Below the pieces are notes generated by a model. That model was not told the DNA's origin and did not search any database. It worked only from the letters and a program-made list of their open reading frames with translations. 64,000 nucleotides of DNA, from the IMG/VR virus record IMGVR_UViG_3300000304_000007, positions 17,651-81,650 of that record, one strand, 5' to 3'. A program made the translations under genes and the position numbers. The DNA comes from a virus. Below are positions 6,943 to 55,600 of the stretch, one piece after another (the stretch's first letter is position 1; the number at the start of each line of letters is the position of its first letter).

Positions 6943-6985
6943 TTATCCGGATTCAATAAGTATTTCAATTTAAACTTCTTCACCA

Positions 6986-8414: not shown

Positions 8415-8415
8415 G

Positions 8416-8676: not shown

Positions 8677-8678
8677 AA

Positions 8679-11098: not shown

Positions 11099-11201
11099 AT
11101 CTTTACATGTCCAATATGATATTCAAGAGTACTCAGTAGTATACTTGATGTACGCTTGACAAGAGAATGAGCATCAGCCCTATTCAAGTTGATATCTCTA
11201 G

Positions 11202-11240
11202 TTTGATACATATTTATATTATATTTTATATATTTGCATA
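11202..11240 (+). promoter_or_regulatory. Bacteroidota-type housekeeping promoter for the sigma-like gene
   Basis: TATATTTG(CA) at 11229-11236 (TAnnTTTG), with TTTG at 11202-11205. Confidence 0.6.
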
Positions 11241-11264
11241 TAAATATTAAAACAGGTATTCGAT

Positions 11265-11915: not shown

Positions 11916-11950
11916 AAAGCCAGCTGGAAACATTGCTGCCTCCAACTGGC
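11914..11950 (-). terminator. Terminator between the convergent sigma-like and amidase genes
   Basis: gccagctgga / tccaactggc stem; TTTTT on the - strand. Confidence 0.6.
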
Positions 11951-11981
11951 CCCAACTAACCAACTCAACCATGGTTATTGC

Positions 11982-25702: not shown

Positions 25703-25737
25703 GGTGAAAATTGTTGAGTTAGTTGGATAAAATGAAC

Positions 25738-25769
25738 AAAAGGGAGGGGCTCTTTCGAACCTCTCCCCT
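25738..25769 (-). terminator. Terminator after the tail tube gene
   Basis: agggagggg / cctctcccct stem; TTTT on the - strand. Confidence 0.6.
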
Positions 25770-25781
25770 CAATGTGTAACT

Positions 25782-26249
25782 TTAGAGTTTTTCTATAGTA
25801 CCGACGGAGAATTCAATTTCCTCGAGGGTGTTGTCTGATGACATCCTGTCGAGTGTTTGACCGTTTACTCTAGTTGGCCAAACTTCATCGCATATCCAGG
25901 AGTTGAGGATAGAAACTCCATCCTCGGCAAGTTCATTGACCTGAACTGTCTCCCAGTATTCTGGAGGAGTAAGACCTCCACCCAAGAGAAGATCCTGGAC
26001 TGACATGAGCCAATCCCACATCCAGGTATCTGAACCTGATGTAGATTCCAGTTTCCGGCAAGTAAGGTTACCCACTGAAATTCTACCTCCAGTCTTGACA
26101 TCCCTGTTGATATCTCCATGAGCAACCTGCTCTACAGAGACCTCCGGAAGTTCACAGTACTGAAAGAGATAGTTGTCTACCGGATGTTTAATGAAGGTTA
26201 TGGACCATAGGAATTGTTTCCTTGGATTTTTGACTTTAGCGTTTGACAT
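25782..26249 (-). CDS. Tail tube protein (T4 gp19-like)
   Basis: PRKQFLWSITF...ELPEVSVE...LEEIEFSV; follows the sheath gene. Confidence 0.88.
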   Translation of the reverse strand: MSNAKVKNPRKQFLWSITFIKHPVDNYLFQYCELPEVSVEQVAHGDINRDVKTGGRISVGNLTCRKLESTSGSDTWMWDWLMSVQDLLLGGGLTPPEYWETVQVNELAEDGVSILNSWICDEVWPTRVNGQTLDRMSSDNTLEEIEFSVGTIEKL

Positions 26250-29682: not shown

Positions 29683-29864
29683 CGTTTGATGTATCTTTCA
29701 CGAGCAGTAAGAAATCCCACTACCCATGATACCAATGCCCATATTCCCAAGAGAACAGACTGCCAGATTGGAGCCCATTTCCAGATACATAAGAACACTA
29801 TTACCATGGCTATGAAGTAGCCTATGATAACCCATGTAGTTGGTTTAATTGATTTGAGACCCAT
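29679..29864 (-). CDS. Small two-TM membrane protein
   Basis: Two hydrophobic helices and a basic C-terminus. Confidence 0.7.
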   Translation of the reverse strand: MGLKSIKPTTWVIIGYFIAMVIVFLCIWKWAPIWQSVLLGIWALVSWVVGFLTARERYIKR

Positions 29865-29868
29865 AAGC

Positions 29869-30520: not shown

Positions 30521-31120
30521 TTAATTATTTGACATAATCATTTGGCCTTCCATCCTGTAAGTAGTATTAGGAGAGAAAGTTACTCCCAGATCCAAGTTCA
30601 TAGAATAGATATTACCGTATTGAGTAGTAGCATGTGAAGGAAATTCTACCCCTGTAGTAGAATTGCTCAATATATCCAACCCACTGAGATTCCATGAGAC
30701 AGGGGAAGGATTGCAAGACTGCCAATAGAGTGAAAACTTGGTGCAGGCTGCTCCTGCAGGTGGGACATAAAGTCTGACAGACTCATATGGTATAGTATAA
30801 TTTCTACCCACAGTAATTATAGTACCGGAAGGAACTTTTTCGTTAATGATGGAATAATTCCTTGAACTGTCTTGGAGGGACATAGTGAGTCCATAACAAG
30901 TAGTATAGAAATTAGATAATATCACCACATTACTAAGAATTACAGTACAAGATGGTGATGTATCCTGAGTAAGATTAACACTCTTGGTTAATCCCGAAGA
31001 AGTCTTTACGGTAATAAATCCAGTCCTTGCAGCAGCAATATTTTCAGAAGCGGTGACCGATATGCTTTTGGATCCTGAACCTGAACTTGCACTCAAAGTG
31101 ATCCAACTTGGTTTTGCCAT
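30521..31120 (-). CDS. Fibre tip candidate starting with the C-terminal half of a BACON domain
   Basis: MAKPSWITLSASSGSGSKSISVTASENIAAARTGFITV...VNLTQ, then an unrelated beta-rich domain. Confidence 0.75.
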   Translation of the reverse strand: MAKPSWITLSASSGSGSKSISVTASENIAAARTGFITVKTSSGLTKSVNLTQDTSPSCTVILSNVVILSNFYTTCYGLTMSLQDSSRNYSIINEKVPSGTIITVGRNYTIPYESVRLYVPPAGAACTKFSLYWQSCNPSPVSWNLSGLDILSNSTTGVEFPSHATTQYGNIYSMNLDLGVTFSPNTTYRMEGQMIMSNN

Positions 31121-31154: not shown

Positions 31155-31724
31155 TTAGCTCAGAATGGTCCAAGCTTCTGTAATAAAATTGAACTGATTG
31201 ATGGGAAGTTTCCAGAGACCATTAGACCCCCAGTCATATCCCCAAGAGTTCTTGAAGTATATGTAATGATGGTCGTACCCATAAGCACAAACAGCATGAC
31301 CTCCGAGTATTTCTGGGCCCTCCCAGAAGTTATTAGAGTCAGACTTAGCAATCATTGCAATTAGAGCACCACCATTCACTAGAATGGCTTCTTTGAGTGA
31401 CGGAAGATTAGTTATTCTGGCATAGGAATGTATCTTATCCTCTTGCCTGAGAATTTCTAAGGCTTCCCTTGGCATCATTCCCTCTAAAGACTTGTCTGCC
31501 CGTCTATCGTAACAGAAGGTGGAATTAATGTCCATGTTCTTCTGTTTCATCTCCCGATAGAAAGCATAGAGTTCATAGAGAGCCTGAGATACGCAAGAAC
31601 CCTCTGCACCCTGGTCAATGACTGGAGTGAGAGGTTCCCTTAAATATTCTACTAGCTGACAGGATCCGTGAAAGATTGCATCCTTCTCGTTGTTTCCTGA
31701 AGCTATACATCCGTAAGTTCTCAT
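31155..31724 (-). CDS. Papain-like cysteine peptidase (C1 family)
   Basis: DQGAEGSC, GGHAVCAYGY, FKNSWGYDWG (Cys-His-Asn triad plus oxyanion Gln). Confidence 0.9.
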   Translation of the reverse strand: MRTYGCIASGNNEKDAIFHGSCQLVEYLREPLTPVIDQGAEGSCVSQALYELYAFYREMKQKNMDINSTFCYDRRADKSLEGMMPREALEILRQEDKIHSYARITNLPSLKEAILVNGGALIAMIAKSDSNNFWEGPEILGGHAVCAYGYDHHYIYFKNSWGYDWGSNGLWKLPINQFNFITEAWTILS

Positions 31725-32059
31725 TTATGTATTTCTCTTCGGAATCTTAAAAGCACTGTGTCTTTGTTTTCTTTCTCGGTTACCGAGATTATGAAGAGTG
31801 AGTCAGCTTTTTGGAAAGCTTCAGTATAGATGTTAGTCTTGACTGAATCGTTTCCATAGAACTGGACTGAACCCCATTCAGTATAGGACTTTAGGGTATT
31901 GAGCTGATGTTCTCGGTAAAGAGAATCAATGAGATACTGAGGTCGGCAGGTATAATATTCTCGGTAGAGATTCCTGGGACCTCCACATGAAAAAAGGGCA
32001 AGCAGCAAGAAAAGACTTGCTGCTACCCATATAAAATAAGCTTTTATGAAATTGTCCAT
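31721..32059 (-). CDS. Lipoprotein
   Basis: Hydrophobic signal ending in the lipobox LFS|C. Confidence 0.75.
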   Translation of the reverse strand: MDNFIKAYFIWVAASLFLLLALFSCGGPRNLYREYYTCRPQYLIDSLYREHQLNTLKSYTEWGSVQFYGNDSVKTNIYTEAFQKADSLFIISVTEKENKDTVLLRFRREIHK

Positions 32060-35000
32060 GATTCATTTGTATGAATGGAGATAGATTTGGTTCCTCCTGA
32101 TGCTGTGAATGACAGTGAAGTAGGGGATACGTTCAGGTAATTAGATTTACCTCCCTGACTAACTGTAACAGATTTTGAGTAAGTCTTACCGTCATGGCCA
32201 GTTCCACTGATAGTTATAGAACCAGAACGATCAGAAGTAGAGGTATTAGCTGTTACCGTTACCCACAGGACAATAGTGTTAGTAGCAACAGCAGTTACCC
32301 AACTCAAAGATTCACTTACATCGATACTAGTATCATCCTGACCCAAGGCAGCTGAAGAATTGGCAGTCATTTTTCTGGATCCTGATGAATATACATCAAA
32401 GTCCTGATATGCTTGAGTAATGTGAACATTAGTCTCTATGCTACCTGCCTCAGAGGAGAAGTTAAGAACTTTCTCAGGATATACATCTGTAATATCTCCC
32501 CACTCTCTTACATTCTCTTCTACCACATTCTCAGCCTGGTACACTACCTCTGTAGTTGCTACAGTATCCATAGTAGCAGTTACAGTAGCTGAACGTGCAC
32601 TACCTTCAATGGTAGTCCTATTTGCCCACGTCACCGTAGTTCCTGAAAGGCTTGCACCTGTACCACTGATGGACAGAGTAGGATTTCCAGACTCGTTTGT
32701 AAGAGCCGAGGTACTTGTAGCCCCTGAAGTAAAGGAGTAGTTCTGAGTTCTAGTACGACTTGCACTTGCCGTGATGGTACAGGTTCCTCCTGATGCAGGA
32801 CATGGGGAAGATTGAGAAGTATATCTATTGGCACTAACGGATACTTGCCAATTTCCATAAGATATATCTCCTGTAGTCTTGACATTTGCTTCCTGATAAA
32901 GTGTAACTGATTTAGTTACCCCACTATGAGTAGCCGTTACTGTTCCGGATCTCCTTGACCCTTCAGTAGTTCCCCTATTTGCCCAAGTGGCTGTAGTACC
33001 ACTAACGGATAATCCTGTACCACTTGCAGAAAGGGAAGGTGTTGCTGTTTCATTGCTTAGAGGTGTCTGAGAAGTTTCCCCAGAAGTATAAGAATAATTC
33101 TGAGTACGACTTCTTGAAGCACTCCTAGTGATAGTACAACTTTCGCCTCCTGCAGCAGCTTCGGTTGAAGTAGTGGTAAAATCCGAAGCACTTATTGATA
33201 CACTCCAAGATCCATAAGATATTCCTTTATCCGTACGAACATTGGCCTGCTGGTATACTGTGATAGTGGTAGTAGCACTTTGACCACCCTCTCCAGTAGC
33301 TGTAACTTTCATGGTACCAACAGAAGTACGAGCCTTCTCGGTCTTGCCCAAGGAATCAGCAGATACAGTAGAGTAAGTGAACTTTACATTACCCGCTCTC
33401 GTATGCTTTGAAGTATAGGATATTGTCTGAGAAGCAGTATATCCTGAAGCAGTAGATACTGATCCTCCTCCTGCGGGTATATCTGCAACTGAGCCAGTAC
33501 CACTTATAGTTACTCTACCATAAATTATGGAGTTAGCCTGTTGTTCTACATTCATAGTCTTAGATGCAGATTTACCATTCATAGTTATGGTACATGTAAG
33601 GGTACCCACTTTAGTCTGAGCTTTAGTAGTAGTGCCAAGATCACTGGCACTTACAGGATCACTATAGGTTACAGTAGCTCCTGATGTAGCATTACTCAAT
33701 GTAGAAGTTGCTCCAGAAGTGTAATTCTGAACCCTGCTTTGTGAATATTGCAGCGTAGAGAAACTTGATACCGTACCTCCAGATGCTGGTATCAGATTAA
33801 CAGCTGTTGTGACAAATGTAGGTATACCATAAGTGATAGAAGTGGCAGCATTTGCCTCCTGATATACAGTGGCAGTCTTTGAAGTAGCACCTTCGTAAGA
33901 AGCCGTTACCGTAGCAGACCTTCTTTCTCCCACAGTGGTTGACCTGTTTGCAGCTGTGACCGTTGTCCCATTGAGAGAGAATCCTGTACCACTGATTGAC
34001 AGAGTAGGAGTAAAAGATGAAGTAGTAGTTGCCCCTGAAGTAAAGGAGTAATTGATTACTCCACTCCGAGTTACTGTCTTAGTACCACCTTCTGCAGGGA
34101 TATCTCCTGAAGGAACAGAAACAGTGATGACTCTGCTTACCTCATTCTTAGAGTTAGCAGCCTGATAAACCATCTTAGTAGCAGAACCAGACTTGCTGTT
34201 GAGAGTTACCGTACAGGTTATTTCATCTACTTCAGTCCTTGCAGATACGGTTGTTCCCTTAGTAGCTGCAGATACTGTAGACCATTTGACGGTACCCCCA
34301 CTAGTGATAGTAGTAGGCTTTGAAGAACCTGAGGTATAAGTATCGGTCTTAGTCTGACTGTAAGAAGCAGTACCAGTAGACACTGAACCACCCTTTGCAG
34401 GGATATCTGCAACAGAAGAGATACTTACAGTAGGATTACTGTAGGTGGTTCCGGTAAGGGCATTTGCTGCCTGCTGAACCGTAACCTGCTTCTGGGTTGT
34501 CTTCCCGTTCAATGTGACCTTGACGGTCGCAGTCGTAACGGTAGTCACACCTGAAACATTCGTGCCCTTTGTTCCAGCAGTCACAGCACCATTCGATGTA
34601 GAAACTGATGTTCCAGAATAGGTAACTGTACCCCCGGAAGTAATCGTTCCCCCGCCCGTGGTAGAACCATTCCAACCCCAAGTTTGTGAATAGGAAACTG
34701 TTGGTGTGACTGTGCCACCCTTTGCAGCAATGGTAGGATAGGAGACGTTCAGGGTAATGTCTGAATAAGACTTCGCACCTGTTGCCTGTGAAACTGTAAC
34801 ATCCTTGCTTGCAGTCTTAGAACCCTCTCCAGTAGCCTTGATTGTAACAACATAACTCCTTGTGGAAGTTGTAGAATTCGCAGTGACTGTAACCTTGTTC
34901 CCACTCAATGAGAAGCCTGAAACTGCTGTTTTCTGTGTATAAGTAAGTGACACATTTCCAGCCCGTGACTTTCCAGAAGTGAATGATACCGTCTGAGAAG

Positions 35001-38000
35001 CACTTGCAGATATAGTGACGGTTCCACCTGTGGCAGCAACTGTTGCCGGATTGCTTGCATTGAGGATCACGTTACCGTAAGTTGCAGTGTTAGCCTGCTG
35101 AGTAATAGGGGTTGTAAGAGTATCAGTATCAGAATCTGATATAGTTCCCCCTCCATAAGTATCACTGATAGTAAGGGTCAGATTCAGAGTAGAAGATACA
35201 TTCCCACAACTACGGGCAGCACCTTCAGTAGTGCCTCTATCAGCTGCTGTAACAACTCCGGTTGAAGAATTGATACTGAAGCCTGTTGCTGTTACCATAG
35301 ACCAAGTTCTAGAAGAACCAATGGTATATCCAGTATAGCTTCCAGCACTTAAGCTATTTGTACCTCCTGAAGACCAAGTAATATTGGCTTTACCTGCCAG
35401 AGTAGGTGATTTAGTTCCACCTGATGCAGGAATTGCTCCAGTAGGGTAACTAAAGTTAGCAGTAGCTACCATCTTAGTAGGCACATTCTTTGCCTGATAT
35501 ACATCAAGAGATTTTGTTGCAGTCTTAGAACCCTCACCAGTTGCAGTTGCAGTCAAGGTTCCAAGTTTGGTCCTGTTCTTAATAGTAGTACCAAGATTTG
35601 AACCTGATATTGCAGTACTGTAGGTAATCTTCACTGTACCAGCTCTTGTGGACTCCGAAGTATAAGTGATTGTCTGACTTGCAGATATCCCACTCATAGA
35701 GGAAACAGAACCGCCGGATGCTGGGATATCAGAAACAGAGCCTCCTGAGATAGTAACAGCACCATAGGAAGTGATTGCATTTGCAGCCTGCTGAACAGTG
35801 AATGTCTTTGTTGCAGCCTTGTTATTAAGGGTAACCTTGACTGTAGCAGTAGTGACATTAGTTGCACTTGATACAGTAGTTCCCTTAGTGCCTGCAGTCA
35901 CAGCTCCGGTTGAAGTGTTGACTCCTGTTCCACTGAATGAAAGGGCAGCACCCGTAGTAATTGTTCCCCCATTAGTAGTGGATTCATTCCATCCCCATGT
36001 CTGAGAGTATGTAACTGTAGGAGTAACAGTTCCACCCTTTGCAGCAATGGTAGGATAAGTGAATCCAGTAATGACAGGAGTAGCATAAGACTTGACCCCG
36101 AGAGATTGATTGAATACTACATCTTTAGAAGCAGTCTTGGAACTCTCACCCGTAGCCTTGACTGTAACTGTATACCCATTCCTTGCAGAAGTTGTCTTGT
36201 TCTCTGTAACAGTGACTATATTTCCACTTAGAGAGAATCCAGTCATAGCAGCCTTCTGAGTGTAAGTCACAGATACATTTCCTGCCCTTGTTGCACCAGA
36301 AGTATACTGGATAGTCTGAGAGTAAATAGGATCTATCCTGTATTCTCCACCTCCAACATCACAAGTTATAGGCGTCTGTACAGTGAGAGATACATCACCG
36401 TACTCAGTTATTGTATTTGCAGCCTGGAATACTGCCACTTCATCCTCTGCAGAAGTCTGACCATTAAGGGTAACTGTGGCAGTAAGTATACCGACCTCTG
36501 TACGGGCTTTTGCAGTTGTTCCCAGAGATTCTGCAGATACTGGATCCCCATAAGTAATGGTTCCCCCTGTAGTATATTCTGGACCCGTTGAAGTTGCCCC
36601 GGAAGTATAATCCCAAGTAGAGAGCTGCTTATAAGTGATTGTACCAGAAGAGACTGAACCTCCAGATGCAGGGATGTCTGCAGCGGTGAAAGTAAGGATA
36701 TTAGGCTTAGCGAATACCTGAGTTCTCTCGTTGACTCCCTGAGTAACAGGGGTAGTCAAAGTAGAAGATTTAGAGTCAGTAAGTTCTCCACCCCCATAGG
36801 TATCATTTATGGTGAGTACCCATTTCAGAGTAGAAGTTACATTACCTGAAGACCTGCTTCCCAAAGTAGTACCCATAGTTGCAGCAGTTACTGCACCTGT
36901 AGAAGAGTTTATGCTGAACCCTGTTGCAGCTACCATTGAATAGGTTCTTGTACCCTGAACAGAGAATCCTGCCTTAGCTCCTGAAGTTGATTCCTCGGAA
37001 GTGGATCCTGAAGACCAAGTTATAGTAACTTTTCCGGATACTGATACATTCTTGGTGCCTCCATAAGGAGCAAGAGCTCCTGCAGCATAACTGAAGGTAG
37101 GTACTGAAGTGATTGCTGTAGGAACGTTCTTAGCCTGAGTACAGGTAGCAGTCAGAGTATCCTCAGCTGTCTTAGACCCCTTTGCATTAAAGTTAGCAGA
37201 TGGAGTCCAAGTACCTGATTTGAGTCGGCTTACTGTAGCAGAAGTACGGGCATTGCCTATGGTAGTTCCACGATGAGTAGCAGTGAGGACTCCGGTATCG
37301 GTATTTACAGCAGTGAACCCATTCTGAGACTTGGCAAGAGAGTAAGCTACTGCAGGTACTTCCCAAGTACCATAAGTAGAAGAAGGAACTACAGCACTTG
37401 ACTGACCAGAAGTATAATGGAATCTCGGAGTCATCTCTGTGACTTTCGGAGTTGCAGAAGTTGCTCCTGCACCTATTTCATCGTAAGAGAAGGAACCTCC
37501 CTCCCATTCTACTTCCTCGATATAGTTACCCTCCTGATTTATCTGAAGGTTGCCGAATACCTCTTCTCCAGTTTCTGGGGCATTCACTACAGCTGATACA
37601 ATACAAGATCTCTGATTGCCGATGTAAGTTCCTCTGTTTGCTACTGAGAGAGTAGAACCCTGAAGAGTGAATCCCTCAGAGTCTTCCAGAGTGAAGGTGG
37701 CTTCTACGGCCTTAGTATAGATTATCTCGTCCCCTATCTTTGCCTCTAGCTGAGCAGTGAGAGGAAGTTCTGCACCTGCAGCATGTACTGATGTAGAGGT
37801 AGAAGAAAGGATGAGCCTATAGTTGTATACTGCATTAGTCTGGATTACCTCAAGAGTAGCCTGAGACTGGTAAGCAGATACTACTCCAGCCGTATTGGTC
37901 TTAAATACGAGATTTTTCTGACGAGTCTGTATCTTCAGGTTTTCATCAGACCCTATATATACTGTCTGAGAACTTTCATTGGGTTTTATCCAGACGTAAA

Positions 38001-38121
38001 GGTTCTCTCCAGTACCATCATTCCAAGGGATAGTGAATTTGGTATATCCTTCCAAATTAGTTGCTCTTGGAGAGGGATTTGATGCCCTTAATACGACTCT
38101 TTTTATGGGTTTCTTAGTCAT
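32044..38121 (-). CDS. Large fibre/adhesin (2025 aa) of tandem ~100-aa Thr/Ser/Gly-rich Ig-like repeats with terminal BACON elements
   Basis: Recurrent IPAxGG...YSQ...YTSG...LGTTxKART...VYQxAN repeats; one full BACON and a half BACON at the C-terminus. Confidence 0.85.
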   Translation of the reverse strand: MTKKPIKRVVLRASNPSPRATNLEGYTKFTIPWNDGTGENLYVWIKPNESSQTVYIGSDENLKIQTRQKNLVFKTNTAGVVSAYQSQATLEVIQTNAVYNYRLILSSTSTSVHAAGAELPLTAQLEAKIGDEIIYTKAVEATFTLEDSEGFTLQGSTLSVANRGTYIGNQRSCIVSAVVNAPETGEEVFGNLQINQEGNYIEEVEWEGGSFSYDEIGAGATSATPKVTEMTPRFHYTSGQSSAVVPSSTYGTWEVPAVAYSLAKSQNGFTAVNTDTGVLTATHRGTTIGNARTSATVSRLKSGTWTPSANFNAKGSKTAEDTLTATCTQAKNVPTAITSVPTFSYAAGALAPYGGTKNVSVSGKVTITWSSGSTSEESTSGAKAGFSVQGTRTYSMVAATGFSINSSTGAVTAATMGTTLGSRSSGNVTSTLKWVLTINDTYGGGELTDSKSSTLTTPVTQGVNERTQVFAKPNILTFTAADIPASGGSVSSGTITYKQLSTWDYTSGATSTGPEYTTGGTITYGDPVSAESLGTTAKARTEVGILTATVTLNGQTSAEDEVAVFQAANTITEYGDVSLTVQTPITCDVGGGEYRIDPIYSQTIQYTSGATRAGNVSVTYTQKAAMTGFSLSGNIVTVTENKTTSARNGYTVTVKATGESSKTASKDVVFNQSLGVKSYATPVITGFTYPTIAAKGGTVTPTVTYSQTWGWNESTTNGGTITTGAALSFSGTGVNTSTGAVTAGTKGTTVSSATNVTTATVKVTLNNKAATKTFTVQQAANAITSYGAVTISGGSVSDIPASGGSVSSMSGISASQTITYTSESTRAGTVKITYSTAISGSNLGTTIKNRTKLGTLTATATGEGSKTATKSLDVYQAKNVPTKMVATANFSYPTGAIPASGGTKSPTLAGKANITWSSGGTNSLSAGSYTGYTIGSSRTWSMVTATGFSINSSTGVVTAADRGTTEGAARSCGNVSSTLNLTLTISDTYGGGTISDSDTDTLTTPITQQANTATYGNVILNASNPATVAATGGTVTISASASQTVSFTSGKSRAGNVSLTYTQKTAVSGFSLSGNKVTVTANSTTSTRSYVVTIKATGEGSKTASKDVTVSQATGAKSYSDITLNVSYPTIAAKGGTVTPTVSYSQTWGWNGSTTGGGTITSGGTVTYSGTSVSTSNGAVTAGTKGTNVSGVTTVTTATVKVTLNGKTTQKQVTVQQAANALTGTTYSNPTVSISSVADIPAKGGSVSTGTASYSQTKTDTYTSGSSKPTTITSGGTVKWSTVSAATKGTTVSARTEVDEITCTVTLNSKSGSATKMVYQAANSKNEVSRVITVSVPSGDIPAEGGTKTVTRSGVINYSFTSGATTTSSFTPTLSISGTGFSLNGTTVTAANRSTTVGERRSATVTASYEGATSKTATVYQEANAATSITYGIPTFVTTAVNLIPASGGTVSSFSTLQYSQSRVQNYTSGATSTLSNATSGATVTYSDPVSASDLGTTTKAQTKVGTLTCTITMNGKSASKTMNVEQQANSIIYGRVTISGTGSVADIPAGGGSVSTASGYTASQTISYTSKHTRAGNVKFTYSTVSADSLGKTEKARTSVGTMKVTATGEGGQSATTTITVYQQANVRTDKGISYGSWSVSISASDFTTTSTEAAAGGESCTITRSASRSRTQNYSYTSGETSQTPLSNETATPSLSASGTGLSVSGTTATWANRGTTEGSRRSGTVTATHSGVTKSVTLYQEANVKTTGDISYGNWQVSVSANRYTSQSSPCPASGGTCTITASASRTRTQNYSFTSGATSTSALTNESGNPTLSISGTGASLSGTTVTWANRTTIEGSARSATVTATMDTVATTEVVYQAENVVEENVREWGDITDVYPEKVLNFSSEAGSIETNVHITQAYQDFDVYSSGSRKMTANSSAALGQDDTSIDVSESLSWVTAVATNTIVLWVTVTANTSTSDRSGSITISGTGHDGKTYSKSVTVSQGGKSNYLNVSPTSLSFTASGGTKSISIHTNESWTIS

Positions 38122-38124
38122 ATG

Positions 38125-38448
38125 TTATATCCTTGAGTATCCAGCTTTAACATCCTCGTAAATAGAATAAGTCTGAGTGAATGTTGCTATCACCAGATTA
38201 TCAGCCTGCTGTACAATACGAAGTACAGCCTGAGCCTGAGCTCCCTCTGGAGAATTCTCATTTGGCTCAACCCCTTGAAATCTGATTACTTTGGTCCTCT
38301 CAACTCCAGTGTTGTTGAGATCAGAAGATACTGGGATGACTGTATCACCTGCAGCAATCTTCGAAAAATCTAAATAAAAAAAGTCCCGGGTCCCATCTTC
38401 CCACGGGATCGGGACATAAGTTCCGGGAGCTAAGGATGATCCAGGCAT
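38125..38448 (-). CDS. Small fibre-cluster protein with a half-BACON-like IPWxDG module
   Basis: IPWEDGT...VSSDLNNTGVERTKVIRF...LRIVQQA, paralogous to the N-terminus of 32044..38121 (IPWNDGT...GSDEN...RQKNLVF...LEVIQ). Confidence 0.7.
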   Translation of the reverse strand: MPGSSLAPGTYVPIPWEDGTRDFFYLDFSKIAAGDTVIPVSSDLNNTGVERTKVIRFQGVEPNENSPEGAQAQAVLRIVQQADNLVIATFTQTYSIYEDVKAGYSRI

Positions 38449-39745: not shown

Positions 39746-39771
39746 TGGGAGGAGACATTCAACTCCTCCCA
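39746..39771 (-). terminator. Stem-loop after the 212-aa gene
   Basis: Perfect 9-bp stem tgggaggag / ctcctccca. Confidence 0.6.
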
Positions 39772-39791
39772 CCCTTTTAAGGAATCTTTGA

Positions 39792-40430
39792 CTAGTTTGC
39801 AGAAACTGTGAACGTAGTGTTCGTAGTAACTGTAACCTCTACCTCGGTACCGTCCTGAGGAACATTTACTGATGTAGGGCTTACCTCGATAGTAGGATCA
39901 CCAGCAGCCTGTTTCAAAGTGATGGTAGCAGAAATACCAGCACCACCCTGACCCTGAACTGTGATAGTCTGGGTTCTTTCCTCTACAGTCTCATTTGCAG
40001 AAGCTGAAAGAGTAAGAGTGAATACGTACTGGGCTTTTGCACCAGGGTCACCTGTGATAGCTGTTCCGGAAGTAGCTGGATCACCGTTAGCCTCGTACTC
40101 TATTGCAGAGATATCAGCAGCGATAACCTCTCCGCTTCCCTTTGAGAAGGTAAGCATTGCAGAGTTTGACTTACCAGTGATAGTTACCGTACCTCCGGTC
40201 TTAACAACGGCCATTTCTGAACCATTGTCAAAACTTACAAACTCAGCTTTCGGAAGTAAGTTTGCAGTGAAGGTTTTCGGTGAGTCTACACCCGCAGCCT
40301 GAACTGAGAATACCTGGGTCTGTTTTACACGGTTACCAGGGTTAACCGGACTAGCTTTAACTTTGAGAGTGGTATTGCCTGATCCCGATCCCGGGGTCAC
40401 GAGAATACCGTTTTTAGTTACATCTGCCAT
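39792..40430 (-). CDS. 212-aa structural protein with a BACON second half at the N-terminus, an Ig-like core and a BACON first half at the C-terminus
   Basis: N-terminus: GILVTPGSGSGNTTLKVKASPVNPGNRVKQTQVFSV. C-terminus: TIEVSPTSVNVPQDGTEVEVTVTTNTTFTVSAN. Confidence 0.8.
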   Translation of the reverse strand: MADVTKNGILVTPGSGSGNTTLKVKASPVNPGNRVKQTQVFSVQAAGVDSPKTFTANLLPKAEFVSFDNGSEMAVVKTGGTVTITGKSNSAMLTFSKGSGEVIAADISAIEYEANGDPATSGTAITGDPGAKAQYVFTLTLSASANETVEERTQTITVQGQGGAGISATITLKQAAGDPTIEVSPTSVNVPQDGTEVEVTVTTNTTFTVSAN

Positions 40431-40455
40431 AACTTATAAAAAAAAACGGTTTGGT

Positions 40456-40683
40456 TTAACTTACTGAGAATGTTGAATTGGTATATACCTCGTTGGTATC
40501 TTCATAGTTGTTCCTTTCTTCCAAATATACCCTCTCTTTTTCAAGTTCAAGATATTTGAAGTCGGGAGCAGGCCAGATGATGACACCATTGAGTACTACC
40601 TGTTTGATTTTCCTTCGATTGTGAATAATCTGACCAACCTTTCGGAGATTGAAGATTATTTCCGAAGGTCTGTACGGCATCAT
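40456..40683 (-). CDS. Small structural protein ending in a half-BACON-like segment
   Basis: IKQVVLNGVIIWP motif and C-terminal YLEL...VYTNSTFSVS. Confidence 0.7.
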   Translation of the reverse strand: MMPYRPSEIIFNLRKVGQIIHNRRKIKQVVLNGVIIWPAPDFKYLELEKERVYLEERNNYEDTNEVYTNSTFSVS

Positions 40684-41530: not shown

Positions 41531-42175
41531 TTATAGTTTAATGGTTTGCCCATCTACAGTTTTCAGAGAACGAGAAGGAGTAAAGTCAGACCCCTTTGGA
41601 ATAATAAGAGGGAGCCCCCTCATATCCCTCAGCTGTTTACCTGAAGAGTCTATAGTATAAGTACCTTGCGTAGTAACTACTCTAGAAGTAGGGGAAGCAT
41701 AAGAGTTGAGGATATTCTCAGTCTCTTGTGGGTCTTCCCTTTTCATAGTGACAAAGAAAAGAAGAGCCTCGTCTTTGGCCTGAGCAACCTGAGTATCTCC
41801 TCCCGGCTTGTATACTTTGCCATTTACTATAAAACGATCTTCCGACCAATTATAATCCCAATACCCGAAGTCATCCAAGAATCCATTCTCGGATAGCAAC
41901 CTTGCAGATATATACAGGACCATATTTGATATGTCGAGCTCGCCGGTAAGAGATGGAGGATTTATTGGCCAAGTCTTGATGTAGTTGTACAAGAAGAGAC
42001 CCTCTAATTGTACTGGCTCATATACCACACCTGAATCTTCACCGTACGCTAATGGTTGCTCTATTTTCCTCAACCACAGGAATGGCTGCCGACCAGAATC
42101 ATTGTCGATGAAATCATTTATGATGTTCTTGTATTGAGTCCAGTCTACATCTGAGACTCTCCTGATCCTTGGCAT
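41531..42175 (-). CDS. Head-closure / neck protein (putative)
   Basis: Follows the adaptor gene; DRFIVNGKVYKP...QVAQ beta-barrel-like motif. Confidence 0.55.
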   Translation of the reverse strand: MPRIRRVSDVDWTQYKNIINDFIDNDSGRQPFLWLRKIEQPLAYGEDSGVVYEPVQLEGLFLYNYIKTWPINPPSLTGELDISNMVLYISARLLSENGFLDDFGYWDYNWSEDRFIVNGKVYKPGGDTQVAQAKDEALLFFVTMKREDPQETENILNSYASPTSRVVTTQGTYTIDSSGKQLRDMRGLPLIIPKGSDFTPSRSLKTVDGQTIKL

Positions 42176-43508: not shown

Positions 43509-43574
43509 GATTTGGTTGATTTAATTGGTTTAAAGGACATAGTAGAGATCCCTCCCTGCTATGCCCCTTGCGGT

Positions 43575-44693
43575 TTACTGAAGATTTACTGAAAGGTACG
43601 GATCGATGTTCATGAACTCTGGGAATCCATTGTCCTCGAACTTCTTCGTCTGGTCGATGAGAAGAGCAGCATCCAGGAACATCTTTGAGAATCCAGTTGT
43701 GAGAGAAGCATAGATTGCTTCAGTCTGATTGGAAACTATCCTTTCTGATTCGAGCATCAACTGACGAGCCGTGAGCTTAATCAAAGCTGCTGAAGGATCC
43801 ACAAGCAGTACACTTGGTGAAGGCACTGAAGGGTGGATATAGAAGTCAGCTGAGTTTGGAACCGGAGTATGGAGATTCAGGGTAGCCTGAGTTGTACCGG
43901 CCATGCGGATCTTGAATTCTGGGAGATCCAGGATGTTGAGAGCCTCTTCCTCTGAACCAATCATGGTAGTGAACCTTCTTCCGAGGCGAGATGCACGGAT
44001 CCAGATCTTGAGGAGATCCTTGTACTGGATGCCCTGAGCAGTATCTGCAACTCCGAGAACCGGAGCAGATTCTGAACCGTCTGCCTGGTTACCGTTGATG
44101 AGAACGTCCATTGCCAGAGTGTCAAGGGCATATCCGAGCTGGATACCGAAGTCACGGAGGAAGATAGACATTACGTCGAGAGAAACGTAGTTCTTGACCT
44201 CATCGGTGATCTTAAATCCCTTACCCATTTTGAAGAGGGTAACAGATTTCTGTCCGAAGCTTACGGAACCGAGAGGGATAGTCTCAGCTTCGTTTACCCT
44301 TGCAGGGGTAGCATCAGACATATTGATCATAGGCATGATTGCTGAAAGACCGCTGATTGGCTGGTCAGAAGCAATTACATTCGGATAGAACGGAGCCTCC
44401 CTTACACCTGTAAGGATAGCAGCACGGATGATCTCTGGTACCAGCCATCTGATTGACTGATCTGGCATGGTGAAAAGGTTCTGCATGGTATCGACCTTGG
44501 TATTTACCCCGATCTTGTCCATGTAGTCCTCCATTGAGAGACCATATCTTTCTTTTACATATTCCTCCAGGGAGATCTCCACTGGCTTCATGTTTTCAGA
44601 ACCAGCACGAATTGCATCGAGCTGCTGAACTGCAGGCTGAAGTTCCTTGAGGAAGTCTCCTGCTTTCATTTTAGCTATGTCTACTGTTGCCAT
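43575..44693 (-). CDS. Major capsid protein (HK97 fold)
   Basis: 372 aa; RWLVPEII, ARVNEAETIP, KMGKGFKITDE; follows the protease and decoration genes. Confidence 0.9.
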   Translation of the reverse strand: MATVDIAKMKAGDFLKELQPAVQQLDAIRAGSENMKPVEISLEEYVKERYGLSMEDYMDKIGVNTKVDTMQNLFTMPDQSIRWLVPEIIRAAILTGVREAPFYPNVIASDQPISGLSAIMPMINMSDATPARVNEAETIPLGSVSFGQKSVTLFKMGKGFKITDEVKNYVSLDVMSIFLRDFGIQLGYALDTLAMDVLINGNQADGSESAPVLGVADTAQGIQYKDLLKIWIRASRLGRRFTTMIGSEEEALNILDLPEFKIRMAGTTQATLNLHTPVPNSADFYIHPSVPSPSVLLVDPSAALIKLTARQLMLESERIVSNQTEAIYASLTTGFSKMFLDAALLIDQTKKFEDNGFPEFMNIDPYLSVNLQ

Positions 44694-45168: not shown

Positions 45169-46617
45169 TTATTTGATTTTTGATTTGGCCATGTTCCTGA
45201 CAGTATCAGCAACGGATACCTCCTCAGTGTTCTTAGTTTCGTCTACTTTTGCAGTCTCTTCATCGTTTTCTTCGATTGAAGAAGCACGGCTGATGTCGTG
45301 AGAACCGCAATTTGCACAAGCGAGAGGGAATTTCTCATCCAGCTGCTTGTCATAAGACTTCTTGAGAGAAAGGAGAGTCTCCAACCCTGTAGTCTCATTG
45401 TTGATGAGAGAAAGGATGGTCTCATCTACCTGTTCACCCATGAGCTTCTTGTAAGAAGCAACAGTGGATTCTCTTACCTCTGAAAGGTGAGAAGTTCCGA
45501 TAGCAGCCATCTTCTCGTTCAGCTTAATAGTAGCATCTCTTTCCTCGATGTCTTTCTTGAGCTGAGCAATAGTGGCATCTGCCTGGGTTCTAGCCTCAGA
45601 CAGAGTCTGATTCTCAGATACAAGGGTCTTGATCTGAGAGAGAGCAATCTCAACACTTGCAGTCTCACCCTCTGCAAGAGTGAGGCAGCCCTGTCCGAAG
45701 AGTTGCTCCAGGAATTGCTGTAATTCGTTCATGTTTGATTGATTTGAGTTTGTATTTGTTTTGCCCTCATGTTTAGAATACATGGTATTGTGCATGGTAT
45801 CTTCCTGAGTCTTGAAACTGAAAGACCAGAATTTCTTAGCCAAGTCGGCTGGCTCAGAGAATTTACCATAAGCAGCGGCAGCATAATCTGAGTTGATTAT
45901 CTTACCATCTTTTATCATCTTGGCAAAAGGATCTGCACCCTGCCATACCAGAGAAGTCTCCAGGTAGCACTGGATATTAGTAGCAATCCTTCTGACCATC
46001 TGACCATCTTCAGCATAAGTACCCAATTTATCCCAGAACTCATAAGGTTTGTCGAAGTTATGGGAAGGCTTCCATTCGAATCTCACCGTAACGGAATTGG
46101 AGTGAATGGAAGGAGGGTCCATATTTATGCCTCTAGCAATTCTTGGGTTTGCTTTAGCATCTATTTTGAAAACTCCATTTATTCCCGCTGGAATGGTCTT
46201 ATTCCCTATTTTATAGGCATCTTGCCACTGAACTGATTTTATAGATCCAATAGCATTTGCAATATCCGTCTCGTGATCACAGTTGACTGTCATGCCGAGA
46301 AGGAGGTGCATAGATTCCTTGAGAACATCGGCAGGGAATTCTGTTGGAAGAGTATTCTTAGCAACTACGCAGTTGGATAGAAGCCTGAACATTGGCTCTA
46401 TGAACTCATCCTCGTTAGGATTAAAAGAATCGGGCTGAGCATCCGGATAGAAGCTGTTGTAGTTGTTGCCTCCACCAAACAAGCCAAAAGAATCCAAGCT
46501 GGATTCAGTAGCTACAGAGGCATATCCTGATGCAAGCTTTTCAGGGTCATTCTTGACCACATTTGGGAACATCATAGAATGATCAGCTCCCAATACCATT
46601 ACATCTACTTCTGGCAT
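45169..46617 (-). CDS. Prohead protease plus scaffold
   Basis: VNCDHE...IGSI; IHSNSV; ETSLVWQGADPFA; coiled-coil acidic C-terminus. Confidence 0.8.
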   Translation of the reverse strand: MPEVDVMVLGADHSMMFPNVVKNDPEKLASGYASVATESSLDSFGLFGGGNNYNSFYPDAQPDSFNPNEDEFIEPMFRLLSNCVVAKNTLPTEFPADVLKESMHLLLGMTVNCDHETDIANAIGSIKSVQWQDAYKIGNKTIPAGINGVFKIDAKANPRIARGINMDPPSIHSNSVTVRFEWKPSHNFDKPYEFWDKLGTYAEDGQMVRRIATNIQCYLETSLVWQGADPFAKMIKDGKIINSDYAAAAYGKFSEPADLAKKFWSFSFKTQEDTMHNTMYSKHEGKTNTNSNQSNMNELQQFLEQLFGQGCLTLAEGETASVEIALSQIKTLVSENQTLSEARTQADATIAQLKKDIEERDATIKLNEKMAAIGTSHLSEVRESTVASYKKLMGEQVDETILSLINNETTGLETLLSLKKSYDKQLDEKFPLACANCGSHDISRASSIEENDEETAKVDETKNTEEVSVADTVRNMAKSKIK

Positions 46618-46619
46618 AG

Positions 46620-48140
46620 TTAACGTCTCCTTGTATCTTGATCATGCCTCTTAGGAGTAGGGTTATTCTTATCCCTGCCCTTTCTGTCTGAGGCTTCTTT
46701 GTCCTTCTTTCTCTCATTGTCCTTTATATCCTGGGCAGAAGGAGTTGACCCGGGATCCAGGAATTCTTCTCTAGGCTTCTTCTCAGCTGGCTTGCTATAA
46801 CCCATCTCCCAAGCAAACTGTTCTTGGCCGATGATACCCTGTGCATAAAGAGTACTGAGGTTCTTGATTTTGTACTCAAGTCCCTGTTGAACTTTGACTT
46901 CATCAGATACTGTAGTAGTGTTGAATACTACCTTCATACCCTTGTTATCAAATCCAGCCAGTCTGAGCTCAAGGGAATAGATGAACTCAAGAGCAAATGC
47001 AAGAATCATCTGCAAGTTCTTCAACTGAGAGAGCATCTTTGACAGCAATACTCCAGCTCCACCCTCTGTAGTAGTAGATTGAACTCCTATGATAGTGCCA
47101 TTTACTCCGAGACCATTAGCAACTCTCTGCTGATTCATTGCCCATGGCTTATCTATGTTGTTCAGATCTTTAGTAGTAGAATTGAGTTCGAATTCATGAT
47201 CATCTATGTAACCCGTAACAATTCCATCCCTCATACCATCCTTCAAGTTCTTCTTGAGCTTTATGAGGTTAGACCTCAATCGGGCAGCATAAGCAGCATC
47301 TGATTCTGAAGCCCTCCTCATGGGCTTAGCCATCTTAGCCTCCAGGAATCCCATCATACCCATCTGCTCCATTATATGTTTGAAGTTCTCCCACATATTG
47401 TGCTGACCAGTGATAGAATCCAGAGAACTCAGGAATGGAGGAACTCCGTATGGTTCATCAGTATCATTGTACATCCCTATGTACTTATAGGTCTCGGTAT
47501 TGAGCTTGATGTACATGTTCTTGAGATTCTTCCTCCCTATGGACATCGGATTCTTCTGATACGGATGATATACTCCGTTTCCCAGTCTCCTGAAGAGAAT
47601 AGATTCAGGCTTCAAAAACAGTATAGTAGCAAGTCCTGAGAGATCTCTGTTTGGTACAGCCTCAATAGATATGGCTCCCCCTACCAGGAGTTGAACTAAC
47701 ATCTTGTTGACTAGACCATCGATACCAGCTGTGTATCTAGTCCAATTCTTAGAAGCCTGGGAAAGATGATCTCTCATCTTCTCTGCCTCTTCAGGAGTAT
47801 TGTTGGGAAAGGAGATGTAGTGACCAGTATTGGCCAGTTTGAACATATCTTGCAGAGCAATGCTTACATCTGGATTGATCTTATAGAGATCTCTGATGAT
47901 GGGTATCAACTCTGTACGGAAGGATGGAGTAATCATCTGGGTCATGTGTTTCAATGACACCAAATAACCTCCCGGAGGAGTCTCTGGTTCTGAAACTCTG
48001 CCAGGAGGAATTGCTACTTCCTTGGGAGGTCTCTTCTTTTTGGGAGCCTCGTTATGTACCTGGACTGGCTTATTCTGGAACCAAGTCCGTGGATCAAAAA
48101 TTGACATATCTTTGGTGTTTTGATTATTCTGGCAGTACAA
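46620..48140 (-). CDS. Portal protein
   Basis: 506 aa immediately after terminase; YGVPPFL and helical gate region. Confidence 0.85.
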   Translation of the reverse strand: MYCQNNQNTKDMSIFDPRTWFQNKPVQVHNEAPKKKRPPKEVAIPPGRVSEPETPPGGYLVSLKHMTQMITPSFRTELIPIIRDLYKINPDVSIALQDMFKLANTGHYISFPNNTPEEAEKMRDHLSQASKNWTRYTAGIDGLVNKMLVQLLVGGAISIEAVPNRDLSGLATILFLKPESILFRRLGNGVYHPYQKNPMSIGRKNLKNMYIKLNTETYKYIGMYNDTDEPYGVPPFLSSLDSITGQHNMWENFKHIMEQMGMMGFLEAKMAKPMRRASESDAAYAARLRSNLIKLKKNLKDGMRDGIVTGYIDDHEFELNSTTKDLNNIDKPWAMNQQRVANGLGVNGTIIGVQSTTTEGGAGVLLSKMLSQLKNLQMILAFALEFIYSLELRLAGFDNKGMKVVFNTTTVSDEVKVQQGLEYKIKNLSTLYAQGIIGQEQFAWEMGYSKPAEKKPREEFLDPGSTPSAQDIKDNERKKDKEASDRKGRDKNNPTPKRHDQDTRRR

Positions 48141-53845: not shown

Positions 53846-55600
53846 TTATTCTATAGTCCAGCTTTCATTTGTGTCTATATCTATGGTCTTAGATCCACCA
53901 GATGCTTCAAATGAGAGTGAAGCAGGGCTAACATTCAAGTAGTTGTCGGCTTTAGCCTGAGTTATAGTCCAAGAGAAGTGATCGGATCCCAGATCACCAA
54001 CCTGAAGATCCCCCTCTAATACACCACTCCTTACTAGATTAGTCTTATTCTCATCAATGGTTACTCCCACCATAGGCTGGTCGGGGTATTCATAAGTACC
54101 ATCTGGAGCCATAGTGGCATTAGAGAATTCAACCCCTGACCAAGATATATCTCCCGGGGCAGTCTTTACTCCATTGATCAAATCTTCTGGATATATGGTA
54201 TCAGTAGCATTAGAAGTATATTTGGCATTAATTGCTACTGCAGCTACTACTGCAATGCTTGCTGAAGCCTGTCCTGAATTAGCATCTATGCTTATTGAGG
54301 ATCCTGCAACGAAAGGTGCCTCATAATTTCCTGAAGAACCTTCTAACTTAGATAGATACCCCTGAGTGAAGGTTACAGATTCTACCTTGTTCTCTTCCTG
54401 GTATATCTCTAGAGTATTCGAAGTACCAGTCTTGCCATTGATAGTGACTGTACAGTATACATCAGCAATCTTGGTTCTAGCTTTTGGTGTAGTGCCCAGA
54501 CTATCTCCGCTTATGTAGGCATAATCTCCATCCCAGCCGCCAGCACCTCCGAACCATTCTATATCAAATCCAATAGGATCATCTCCTGTTGACCATTCTA
54601 TGCTACCACCCCCAGTAGTAGAACCATTATATCCCCAAGTCTGGGTAAAGGATACAACCAGAACTGTATCATTTCCATCAGCAGGAGCATCTGGTGATTC
54701 GGGTTTTGAATAGTTTATGGTGACTACAGGATCTCCATAGGTTATCTGGGCAGCACTCTGAGTGATTGAACAAGTTGCTGAGGTACCATGAGATCCAGAG
54801 AAGGATATGGTAGCATTCCTTGCTGAGTCTCCTGTGTATTCCGTCACAGTCACTGTCACAGTATTTCCAGAGGTTTTCACTGTAGCCCAAGTCTGGTTGG
54901 AGCTAGCAGTCCAAGTATCATTAGATGTGACTGTAATGTCAAAGGATCCTCCCTTGCCCTCTACTGTCTTAGAGGTAGGGTTCACTGAGAGGTTGTATCC
55001 CTGACCTACCTGAGTTACCGAGAGTGTAGCACTTCCACTATGTGATCCCCTGAAGGTGATAGTTCCGGTTCTAGCCTCTGCTCCTGAGTTAGCCGACTGA
55101 GTAGTGAATGTTACCGTGTCATTGCCTGACCCAGTAGATTTGCTTACTCCCAGCCATTCTGGAGCTCCTGTGACAGTCCAGCCCTGATTTGCTGTCACCG
55201 TCACTGCTTTGTAGGATCCAGAGGTGTTTTCCAGACTGATTGAGGTAGGATTGATGCTGATTGTGTAGGCATCGTGTTTTGCCTGTTCTACTGATACTCT
55301 GACTTCCACTTCTTCTGAGCGGAATAGCAGAGTAGCTGATCGAGAGGATGAGGCAGAGGTATTCTCTGTCACATTCAGAGTAATCTCTTCAGTGTCAGGT
55401 TCTTTGACCTCAGAGCCTCCGCTCTTCTTAGATACCGTTAGCCAGGAAGTTTCTCCTGACACATACTCCCATGGTTTGTTGAAAGTAACCACTAGAGTAG
55501 TGGAGTCTGCTCCATAGCTAGGCTTCCAGCTTAAAGGTTGGATGGAGAACGAGGTAGGCTGGCCGACCTTCCTGTTCTGCATGAAAAATAAGGTATTCAT
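53846..55600 (-). CDS. BACON-repeat fibre protein (three full BACONs, one 2025-aa-type repeat, one further domain, C-terminal half BACON)
   Basis: WTVTGAPEWLGVSKSTGSGN...ARTGTITF; SLGTTPKARTKI; ends YLNVSPASLSFEASGGSKTIDIDTNESWTIE. Confidence 0.88.
   Translation of the reverse strand: MNTLFFMQNRKVGQPTSFSIQPLSWKPSYGADSTTLVVTFNKPWEYVSGETSWLTVSKKSGGSEVKEPDTEEITLNVTENTSASSSRSATLLFRSEEVEVRVSVEQAKHDAYTISINPTSISLENTSGSYKAVTVTANQGWTVTGAPEWLGVSKSTGSGNDTVTFTTQSANSGAEARTGTITFRGSHSGSATLSVTQVGQGYNLSVNPTSKTVEGKGGSFDITVTSNDTWTASSNQTWATVKTSGNTVTVTVTEYTGDSARNATISFSGSHGTSATCSITQSAAQITYGDPVVTINYSKPESPDAPADGNDTVLVVSFTQTWGYNGSTTGGGSIEWSTGDDPIGFDIEWFGGAGGWDGDYAYISGDSLGTTPKARTKIADVYCTVTINGKTGTSNTLEIYQEENKVESVTFTQGYLSKLEGSSGNYEAPFVAGSSISIDANSGQASASIAVVAAVAINAKYTSNATDTIYPEDLINGVKTAPGDISWSGVEFSNATMAPDGTYEYPDQPMVGVTIDENKTNLVRSGVLEGDLQVGDLGSDHFSWTITQAKADNYLNVSPASLSFEASGGSKTIDIDTNESWTIE

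Follow-up and report, generated by a model that had tools for sequence, protein, structure and literature searches.

Several known assemblies are held together by immunoglobulin (Ig)-like folds that are completed between polypeptides. In chaperone–usher pili (Pap, Fim, CFA/I and Csu), beta structure of the next subunit completes an incomplete Ig-like fold, giving head-to-tail non-covalent fibres that are begun and ended by donor-only and acceptor-only components; in the type V pili of Bacteroidia (FimA and Mfa1), C-terminal strands of one subunit fill the groove of the next. Beta-sandwiches in two pieces are also known from engineered split Ig-like domains (SpyTag/SpyCatcher, from CnaB2) and from self-complemented pilins, and reassemble with high specificity. 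Here we examine a phage locus that may use a related joint. The window analysed is a 64-kb stretch (positions 17,651 to 81,650) of the 88,680-bp IMG/VR record IMGVR_UViG_3300000304_000007, which CheckV rates as complete. It encodes a protein of 212 amino acids (aa) that begins with the second half and ends with the first half of a BACON-type Ig domain and, immediately upstream, a 75-aa protein, here called U, that ends in a matching first half. We refer to first halves (strands A to C) as donors and to second halves (strands C' to G) as acceptors. We propose, tentatively and at a little less than an even chance, that the 212-aa protein is the extender, or link, of a non-covalent appendage in which the split domain is completed between polypeptides to form an initiator–extender chain.

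The principle, completion of a fold between subunits, is already known from chaperone–usher pili, type V pili and domain swapping, and the locus differs from each of them. Whereas pilins miss strand G and donate one N-terminal strand, the 212-aa acceptor misses strands A to C and the protein would donate three C-terminal strands (A-B-C, about 35 residues); the fold is of the BACON type, the setting is one of virion parts, and a chaperone, usher, signal peptide and periplasm play no part. The Pfam scan found no chaperone or usher families among the neighbouring genes, and PHROGs assigned the genes scanned with it to phage structural families or gave no match. Type V pilins are lipoprotein precursors opened by gingipain-type cleavage, whereas the N-terminus of the 212-aa protein (MADVTKNGILVTPGSGSG, starting MADVTKNG) has by eye neither a signal peptide nor a lipobox and implies no cleavage, and the protein matches no pilin family in Pfam. 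BACON is a Bacteroidota-associated domain, and the host phylum may be the same as for type V pili. One study (PMC13370021) reports Bacteroidota hosts for gut phages that bear BACON. As in three-dimensional domain swapping, including its runaway form, one interface appears to be formed either in-chain (in our monomer model) or between chains (in our three-copy model), with short proline-containing hinges; unlike in swapping, the split is built into the sequence, the donor-only starter comes from a gene of its own, U, and more than a thousand homologues preserve this arrangement. SpyTag/SpyCatcher is man-made and locked by an isopeptide bond, whereas the phage system is natural and apparently non-covalent.

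Among virion structures, the closest are the neck appendages of myoviruses (the T4 fibritin whiskers and collar, and the collar protein gp28 of E217 and Pa193), in which accessory proteins sit on neck proteins of the stopper/collar class, the class that the neck domain of a 198-aa form of U matches (see below). Fibritin, however, forms a trimeric coiled coil, and the known collars attach by ordinary interfaces; to our knowledge, a split-domain joint has not been described for these appendages. Head fibres of the crAss001 type are a further parallel: the crassvirus cr111_1 likewise has the cassette of U and the 212-aa gene, and the crAss-like contig L089 encodes a PF25641 head-fibre protein that carries a donor end. 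BACON and Ig modules are described on structural proteins of crAss-like and myovirus-like gut phages (PMC13370021, PMC6949934); the parts of these papers that we consulted treat BACON domains as whole modules within one protein, and term searches in them found no discussion of terminal half-domains or their pairing. Four peptide motifs were absent from the supplements of PMC13370021, which describes a single-BACON 'S' protein that may belong to the 212-aa family. Literature searches for donor-strand or split-domain joints in phage fibres yielded no description of such a joint. The comparison suggests that what is new here is the exchange of a C-terminal half-domain, without secretion or chaperone machinery, in a phage virion, with starter, extender and stopper in gene order.

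The 212-aa protein consists of an acceptor half, a complete middle domain and a donor half (Table 1). In its AlphaFold2 (AF2) model, the acceptor half has strands at residues 4–6, 9–12, 23–26, 37–43 and 52–58, residues 62–175 form a full sandwich and residues 179–212 contain two assigned strands. The earlier note on this DNA had read the N-terminus as the second half of a BACON domain and the C-terminus as the first, and alignment bears this out. The last 37 residues are clearly similar to the first half of canonical BACON domains found in the 584-aa protein of the same phage (z scores of 6.5–8.7). Placed in permuted order, residues 176–212 followed by 1–60 align colinearly across the junction with the same domains (scores of 75–80, z scores of 6.3–7.5), and this order scores above the native one. 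The domain break falls exactly in the C–C' loop of the fold. Our own hidden Markov models (HMMs) of the half-domains, which included the halves of this protein among the sequences used to build them, recover the acceptor with an independent E-value (iE) of 1e-26 and the donor with an iE of 3.8e-15. The Pfam BACON model (PF13004) stays below its gathering score (22.9 bits against a cutoff of 25) and matches only the second half of the middle domain (residues 128–175); BACON_2 (PF19190) is also sub-threshold, at 12.6 bits. Judged from sequence, 'BACON' is a fair description of the fold type of the split domain, with no formal family assignment. The PHROGs scan gave no match for the 212-aa or the 75-aa protein, nor did Pfam for the latter, and a sequence search of solved structures gave none for the 212-aa family, the capsid protein or the neck family described below.

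The family is large, with at least 1,794 homologues at E ≤ 0.001, and nearly all of the best 120 are 202–227 aa in length. Across 36 aligned homologues, the terminal halves are conserved as strongly as the core, and the conserved positions include the invariant Q and G of the VPQDG loop as well as V.TNTTFTV.

The two open reading frames (ORFs) lie where the earlier note had placed them, with U immediately upstream of the 212-aa gene; the start of U overlaps the preceding 279-aa gene through ATGA. The matching donor end claimed for U is real and resides in the last strands only (V.TN.TF.V), the earlier part of U having no detectable similarity to canonical BACON. Positions common to the donors of the 212-aa protein and U are V201/V66, T203/T68, N204/N69, T206/T71, F207/F72 and V209/V74, and the alignment of upstream proteins shows conservation of K49, L54, N58, T68, N69 and F72 in the donor half of U. 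A word-based homology search with the 75-aa sequence returned near-identical copies only, and we used synteny in its place. Eighty IMG/VR loci were fetched, 75 of which, the window included, contain the upstream DNA. In every one of the 75, a gene that ends in the donor-half motif L.LEK....L...N.y.Dt..V.TN.tF.V stops 1–36 nucleotides (nt) ahead of the start codon of the 212-aa homologue, so that pairing with U is obligatory in this sample; the donor-bearing proteins span 66 to 199 aa, and their remainder varies from 30 to 160 residues. All three frame relations between the two genes occur (35, 28 and 12 loci). Given this variety of gaps and frames, the two are separate proteins that selection has kept split. 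The LNGVIIWP motif singled out in the earlier note is likewise real, and is conserved as [FY]NG..[IV]W among the short upstream proteins.

The longer upstream proteins indicate what the donor half is attached to. At 46 loci the upstream protein is 198–199 aa in length and shares, across its first ~165 residues, 53% identity (over 167 aa) with the 214-aa ORF of the window, whereas the window and 11 other loci have a neck protein that lacks the donor, the donor being carried instead on a separate 66–75-aa protein. The AF2 model of the 198-aa form has a predicted local distance difference test (pLDDT) score of 85.8, with most of the neck core at 87–97, one internal block at 64 and the donor tail at 58–77 only. 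A Foldseek search with this model retrieved phage neck complexes as nearly all of the top 20 matches (probability 1.0, E of 2e-4 to 7e-3, target-normalized template modelling (TM) score of 0.40–0.63), including T4 gp13/gp14, the connectors of FCWL1, Pam3 and phiXa, the necks of Pa193 and E217, SPP1 gp16 and the T1 stopper. Going by these models, most relatives carry the donor half as an extension at the C-terminus of a stopper/collar-class neck protein. The neck-family profile matches 231 representative clusters, mostly of about 153 aa. None of 74 neck-family members matched PF05521 or PF22755 in Pfam, and the best match of the profile among Protein Data Bank (PDB) sequences had an E-value of 0.85; the Atlas leads for the family are PF05521, PF22755 and PF11649. 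The [FY]NG..I repeats of the short U proteins resemble the invariant NGKVY hairpin of the neck domain. Separately, neck proteins that lack a donor (window positions 41531-42175 and the homologues on L014, L077 and L001) finish in different C-terminal tails, whose last strands are of the [ND]G..I type (TVDGQTIKL and NTNGRKVYEII are examples) and resemble the same repeats. Such tails may be how U75 is held. The proposal that the 75-aa protein acts as an anchor is well supported: at 46 loci a neck protein ends in the donor half, and a natural fusion (P0155) joins both halves. Binding in trans is what we infer from these observations.

In P0155 (381 aa), one chain contains, in order, the neck domain, a donor half, a 9-aa linker, an acceptor half and the middle domain. 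This order shows that the donor of U and the acceptor of the 212-aa protein are two halves of one domain. The protein stops right behind the middle domain, where the usual next gene follows, and the absent terminal donor is therefore dispensable once the domain is covalent. Longer homologues have the acceptor and donor at the two ends of a long Ig rod (635 aa), and others have the donor only (384 aa); in P0133 and P0146 the donor half is internal, with other domains after it. On the crAss-like contig L089 (positions 6350-12906, and also on L090), five consecutive genes form a split-BACON series (Table 1). Cis closure of the long-rod proteins in this series is implausible because the rods are too long, so that an end-to-end chain of separate proteins is the natural reading. 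A U (126 aa) plus 212-like cassette is also present in the classified crassvirus cr111_1 (L082:1362-2373, MT774387, Steigviridae), and the cassette appears to move between unrelated phage groups. In cr111_1 it adjoins a 123-aa protein with an N-terminus that looks like that of a head-fibre protein.

We modelled the 212-aa protein alone and in three copies. A Foldseek search with the AF2 monomer gave generic tandem Ig/BACON matches only, the weak ones including self-complemented or fused pilin constructs (3f85, 3f83 and 6fm5). The three-copy ESMFold2 model scored 0.63, against 0.00 for the best of three controls. In the calibration, 20 of 30 proteins with structures solved as pairs of one chain attained such a score, against 1 of 23 with single-chain structures, counts that hold only roughly because the calibration used two copies and other alignments and our model three copies with its own alignment. 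At least 95% of contacts agreed between the runs, with partner pLDDT values of at least 91. The interface lies between residues 179–212 of one copy and 4–61 of the next, and the C-terminal half was placed in trans, not in cis, in all three runs; because the scored copy's own C-terminal half takes part in no interface, the model is an open head-to-tail chain and not a ring. The head-to-tail self-complementation that the earlier note had considered topologically possible is thus reproduced by a modelled homo-oligomer through these very halves. Most of the donor positions that U has in common with the 212-aa protein fall among the contacts of lowest error in this model. No comparable split-BACON joint was found among solved structures; the PDB is rich in tandem BACON and Ig domains, however, and the model may therefore be rebuilding a familiar domain. 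We take the three-copy model as supporting, and not as showing, binding between copies, and homopolymerization as a prospect that only this model supports.

We envisage the following assembly. The C-terminal donor of U (strands A to C) would fill the N-terminal acceptor of the 212-aa protein (strands C' to G). U itself would be, or dock to, a stopper/collar-class neck protein, so that the appendage would be suspended, as a whisker or collar, from the neck or, in crAss-like phages, from a head fibre. The donor of the 212-aa protein, with the same V.TNTTF.V end, would then fill the acceptor of a further copy; as its terminal strands are those of U, it should fit the same acceptor. The outcome would be a short head-to-tail chain that is started by donor-only proteins and can be stopped by an acceptor-only 199-aa protein. 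The step in which U completes the 212-aa acceptor in trans is very probable, given the obligatory synteny, the common contact residues, the fusion P0155 and the hetero-chains of L089. For the window phage, we infer binding in trans, a chain longer than one subunit and a position on the virion.

Other proteins of the same genome carry such halves. A census of the whole 88.7-kb genome with the half-domain HMMs places donor ends on the 584-aa, 2025-aa and 212-aa proteins and, in divergent form, on U75, and N-terminal acceptors on the 212-aa and 199-aa proteins only. The N-terminus of the 199-aa protein exceeds the gathering score of Pfam BACON (36.7 bits, profile positions 8-60 of 61), matches BACON_2 (positions 42-92 of 94) and is found by the acceptor HMM (iE 8e-24); the 584-aa protein also passes Pfam BACON (80.3 bits). 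Joined to the N-terminal half of the 199-aa protein, the C-terminal half of the 212-aa protein aligns well with a canonical BACON domain (z score of 13.9). Canonical tryptophans are retained in the ends of the 584-aa and 2025-aa proteins (TNESWTI) and in the start of the 199-aa protein (PSWITLS); U75 and the 212-aa protein both end in TN.TF.V, and the 212-aa acceptor has GILV where the 199-aa protein has PSWITLS. These sequences hint at two specificity classes of halves (TNESWTI/PSWITLS versus TN.TF.V/GILV). Capping of the polymer by acceptor-only proteins, a further proposal of the earlier note, finds a candidate in the window phage, which encodes the 199-aa protein, and none in five complete relatives; within 9 kb on each side of the gene, relatives have no acceptor half beyond that of the 212-aa homologue itself.

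Several points weigh against growth of an extended chain. Both termini of the AF2 monomer are confident (pLDDT 88–97) and, because open half-sandwiches would not score so high, the halves probably close in cis in that model, which makes a closed monomer sterically plausible. The three-copy score is the model's own confidence, in a job unlike the calibration. P0155 has no terminal donor, as expected if the donor merely self-caps the split form. In the five complete relatives (78–104 kb) the only acceptor half is that of the 212-aa homologue itself, and a chain would end in a free donor. Growth past the first subunit would, moreover, exchange a cis for an identical trans contact and, unless the closed form were under strain, nothing obvious would drive this energetically. 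Most of these observations would suit a single-copy arrangement, in which one 212-aa protein joins each U donor (1:1), its own C-terminal half having capped its N-terminal half in cis beforehand, and no homopolymer forms; after U displaces the cap, the freed donor would stay loose or, in the window phage, enter the 199-aa acceptor (U to 212 to 199), in line with the defined hetero-chains in gene order on L089 and the good alignment of the joined 212-aa and 199-aa halves. This arrangement is a serious rival, although we rate it as less probable than the chain: the five complete relatives, although they encode no acceptor-only protein, keep the donor half of the 212-aa protein nearly invariant, which speaks for self-addition; the three-copy runs uniformly chose trans over cis; and the 199-aa acceptor exists without a self-cap, so a cis cap is no general need of acceptor halves. 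The overall confidence of the monomer (pLDDT 91.6, predicted TM score 0.74) and of its termini, together with the internal donor halves of P0133 and P0146, could also be read as a permanently closed circular permutant, with halves that always pair in-chain to give a compact Ig protein of two domains, such as a glycan-binding decoration, and with the donor-like end of U otherwise used or functionless. That reading is improbable, as it leaves unexplained the donor end with the same contact residues in all 75 upstream genes, the contiguous domain that the donor of U and the acceptor form in P0155, and the long-rod homologues.

A different objection to a chain of separate proteins is that the split between the 75-aa and 212-aa ORFs is an annotation artefact, and that recoding (frameshift, readthrough or bypassing over a T9 run) joins them. 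The 25-nt spacer (40431-40455) contains T9 plus ATAAGTT, a hairpin also lies between the ORFs, and on one contig (L001) the ORFs are fused in frame (P0037, 286 aa). This fusion is a single case that requires a TAA-to-TAT change relative to its neighbours, on a contig with 3.3x coverage. In the window, TAA codons shut both frames on either side of the gap and no one frameshift or readthrough event can join the ORFs; among the 75 loci, the gap varies from 1 to 36 nt and all three frame relations are found; and the spacer homopolymer of relatives (L003-L010) ranges from A8 to A14 and differs in length between near-identical phages, which makes the split the selected state and not a recoding signal. 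On the strength of the stop codons in the window and the variable gaps and frames among loci, we rejected fusion by readthrough or frameshift, and recoding as a whole is very improbable. As a separate observation, a 14-nt inverted repeat in the window spacer puts the ATG inside a hairpin loop.

The strong hairpin claimed behind the 212-aa gene, like that behind the tube gene, is confirmed. The former is a GC-rich 13-bp stem that begins 20 nt past the stop codon, has no U run and is terminator-like or stabilizer-like. In the comparison of 78 homologue-bearing loci, folded wherever 90 nt of downstream DNA were present, the related loci examined have a hairpin of different sequence at the same position (median folding free energy (dG) of -24). 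Strong hairpins (dG of -20 to -29), most of them without a U run, also lie directly behind the capsid, tube, 207-aa and 584-aa genes (43509-43578, 25703-25785, 29683-29868 and below 53846 on the minus strand). A place in the structural module and a hairpin type in common with the capsid and tube genes are the only signs, both indirect, that the 212-aa protein may be abundant.

Nearly all window genes are on the minus strand, and the structural genes assigned by PHROGs, among them sheath, tube and tape measure, identify a myovirus-type phage (Table 1). DNA near-identical to the window is present in chicken-gut and other metagenome runs. The 212-aa gene lies beyond the major capsid gene and ahead of the tail genes. 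The earlier description of it as lying just after the head and neck genes holds only approximately: the capsid gene and the 214-aa neck gene are upstream, and a second neck gene (198 aa, Neck1/tail completion) is downstream.

Some further features of the region were noted. A small Ig-like domain family with the motif IPW.DGT is represented in the window at 38125-38448 (minus strand) and at residues ~20-95 of the 2025-aa ORF. In most of ten relatives inspected, a protein of this family (95-107 aa) comes after the 212-like gene, and the long fibre proteins also begin with the domain; the motif DNLVIATF..Y.D.KAGY from its C-terminus turns up again mid-way in the crAss-type 126-aa upstream protein. 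On this pattern, the domain may be a second docking module. Two genes lie between the 2025-aa donor gene and the 199-aa acceptor gene (31155-32059, minus strand): a 112-aa lipoprotein-like ORF (LLALFSCGG) and a 189-aa ORF that matches a PHROG 'peptidase' and contains a papain-like Cys motif. The large terminase (833 aa, 48124-50625, minus strand) has an in-frame insert bearing an HNH endonuclease domain (residues ~288-443); the insert begins with CVTGDTQIV, finishes with SHN followed by T, and resembles an intein with a homing endonuclease.

Table 1. Features of the split-domain locus, of the surrounding window and of the crAss-like contig L089.
Feature	Position	Strand	Evidence
212-aa 'link' protein: acceptor half, middle domain, donor half	39792..40430	-	ORF, homologues, alignment, AF2 monomer
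Acceptor half, residues 1-59 (strands C', E, F, G of a BACON-like sandwich)	40254..40430	-	AF2 strands, acceptor-half HMM, three-copy model
Complete middle BACON-like domain, residues 62-175	39906..40247	-	weak Pfam BACON hit, Foldseek
Donor half, residues 176-212 (strands A, B, C), end TNTTFTVSAN	39795..39905	-	donor-half HMM, BACON first-half similarity, three-copy model
75-aa protein U: basic N-terminal part with LNGVIIWP, C-terminal donor half	40456..40683	-	ORF, synteny, alignment
Donor half of U, residues ~40-75, end TNSTFSVS	40459..40566	-	conserved residues, positions common with 212-aa donor
GC-rich 13-bp hairpin behind the 212-aa gene	39746..39771	-	dG -22.8, z -3.1
214-aa neck protein (stopper/collar class); homologue carries donor half in 46 loci	41531..42175	-	53% identity, AF2/Foldseek of 198-aa form, Atlas leads
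199-aa acceptor-only protein, BACON second half at residues 1-52; candidate chain terminator/tip	30521..31120	-	Pfam, acceptor HMM
2025-aa Ig-repeat fibre ending in donor half TNESWTIS	32044..38121	-	donor HMM iE 4e-17, residues 1995-2025
584-aa BACON-repeat protein ending in near-identical donor half TNESWTIE	53846..55600	-	donor HMM iE 7e-19, residues 554-584
Terminase	48124-50625	-	PHROGs
Portal	46620-48140		PHROGs
Protease	45169-46617		PHROGs
Major capsid protein	43575-44693	-	PHROGs
Neck1/tail-completion protein, 198 aa	28692-29288		PHROGs
Sheath	26266-28002		PHROGs
Tube	25782-26249	-	PHROGs
Tape measure	21963-24761		PHROGs
L089 gene 1: 50-aa donor-only protein			own HMM supports donor end
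L089 gene 2: PF25641 head-fibre protein ending in donor			own HMM supports donor end
L089 gene 3: 556-aa acceptor...donor protein			both halves HMM-supported
L089 gene 4: 635-aa acceptor...donor protein, 212-aa homologue			donor by HMM; acceptor by homology
L089 gene 5: 308-aa protein, N-terminus reads as acceptor half, no terminal donor			motif and faint Pfam BACON hit

Taken beyond the window, it is possible, although we put the chance somewhat below even, that gut phages of both a myovirus lineage and Crassvirales build neck whiskers and head fibres as nucleated, open-ended, non-covalent chains, in which a BACON domain split at the C–C' loop is re-formed between gene products by donor-only initiators, acceptor-plus-donor extenders able to homopolymerize, and acceptor-only terminators. 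If this is true, it would constitute a principle of phage-appendage assembly in which separate proteins are joined through a split Ig-like domain and the components are encoded side by side, that is, a pilus-like assembly logic within the virion. BACON/Ig adhesin modules have been linked to adherence to mucus and epithelium (PMC13370021). Such a joint would be a natural, orthogonal protein plug-and-socket pair for swapping adhesin modules, and would explain how these modules are shuffled in abundant gut phages without re-engineering of virion attachment sites, as well as how the cassette of U and the 212-aa gene comes to move between unrelated phage groups.

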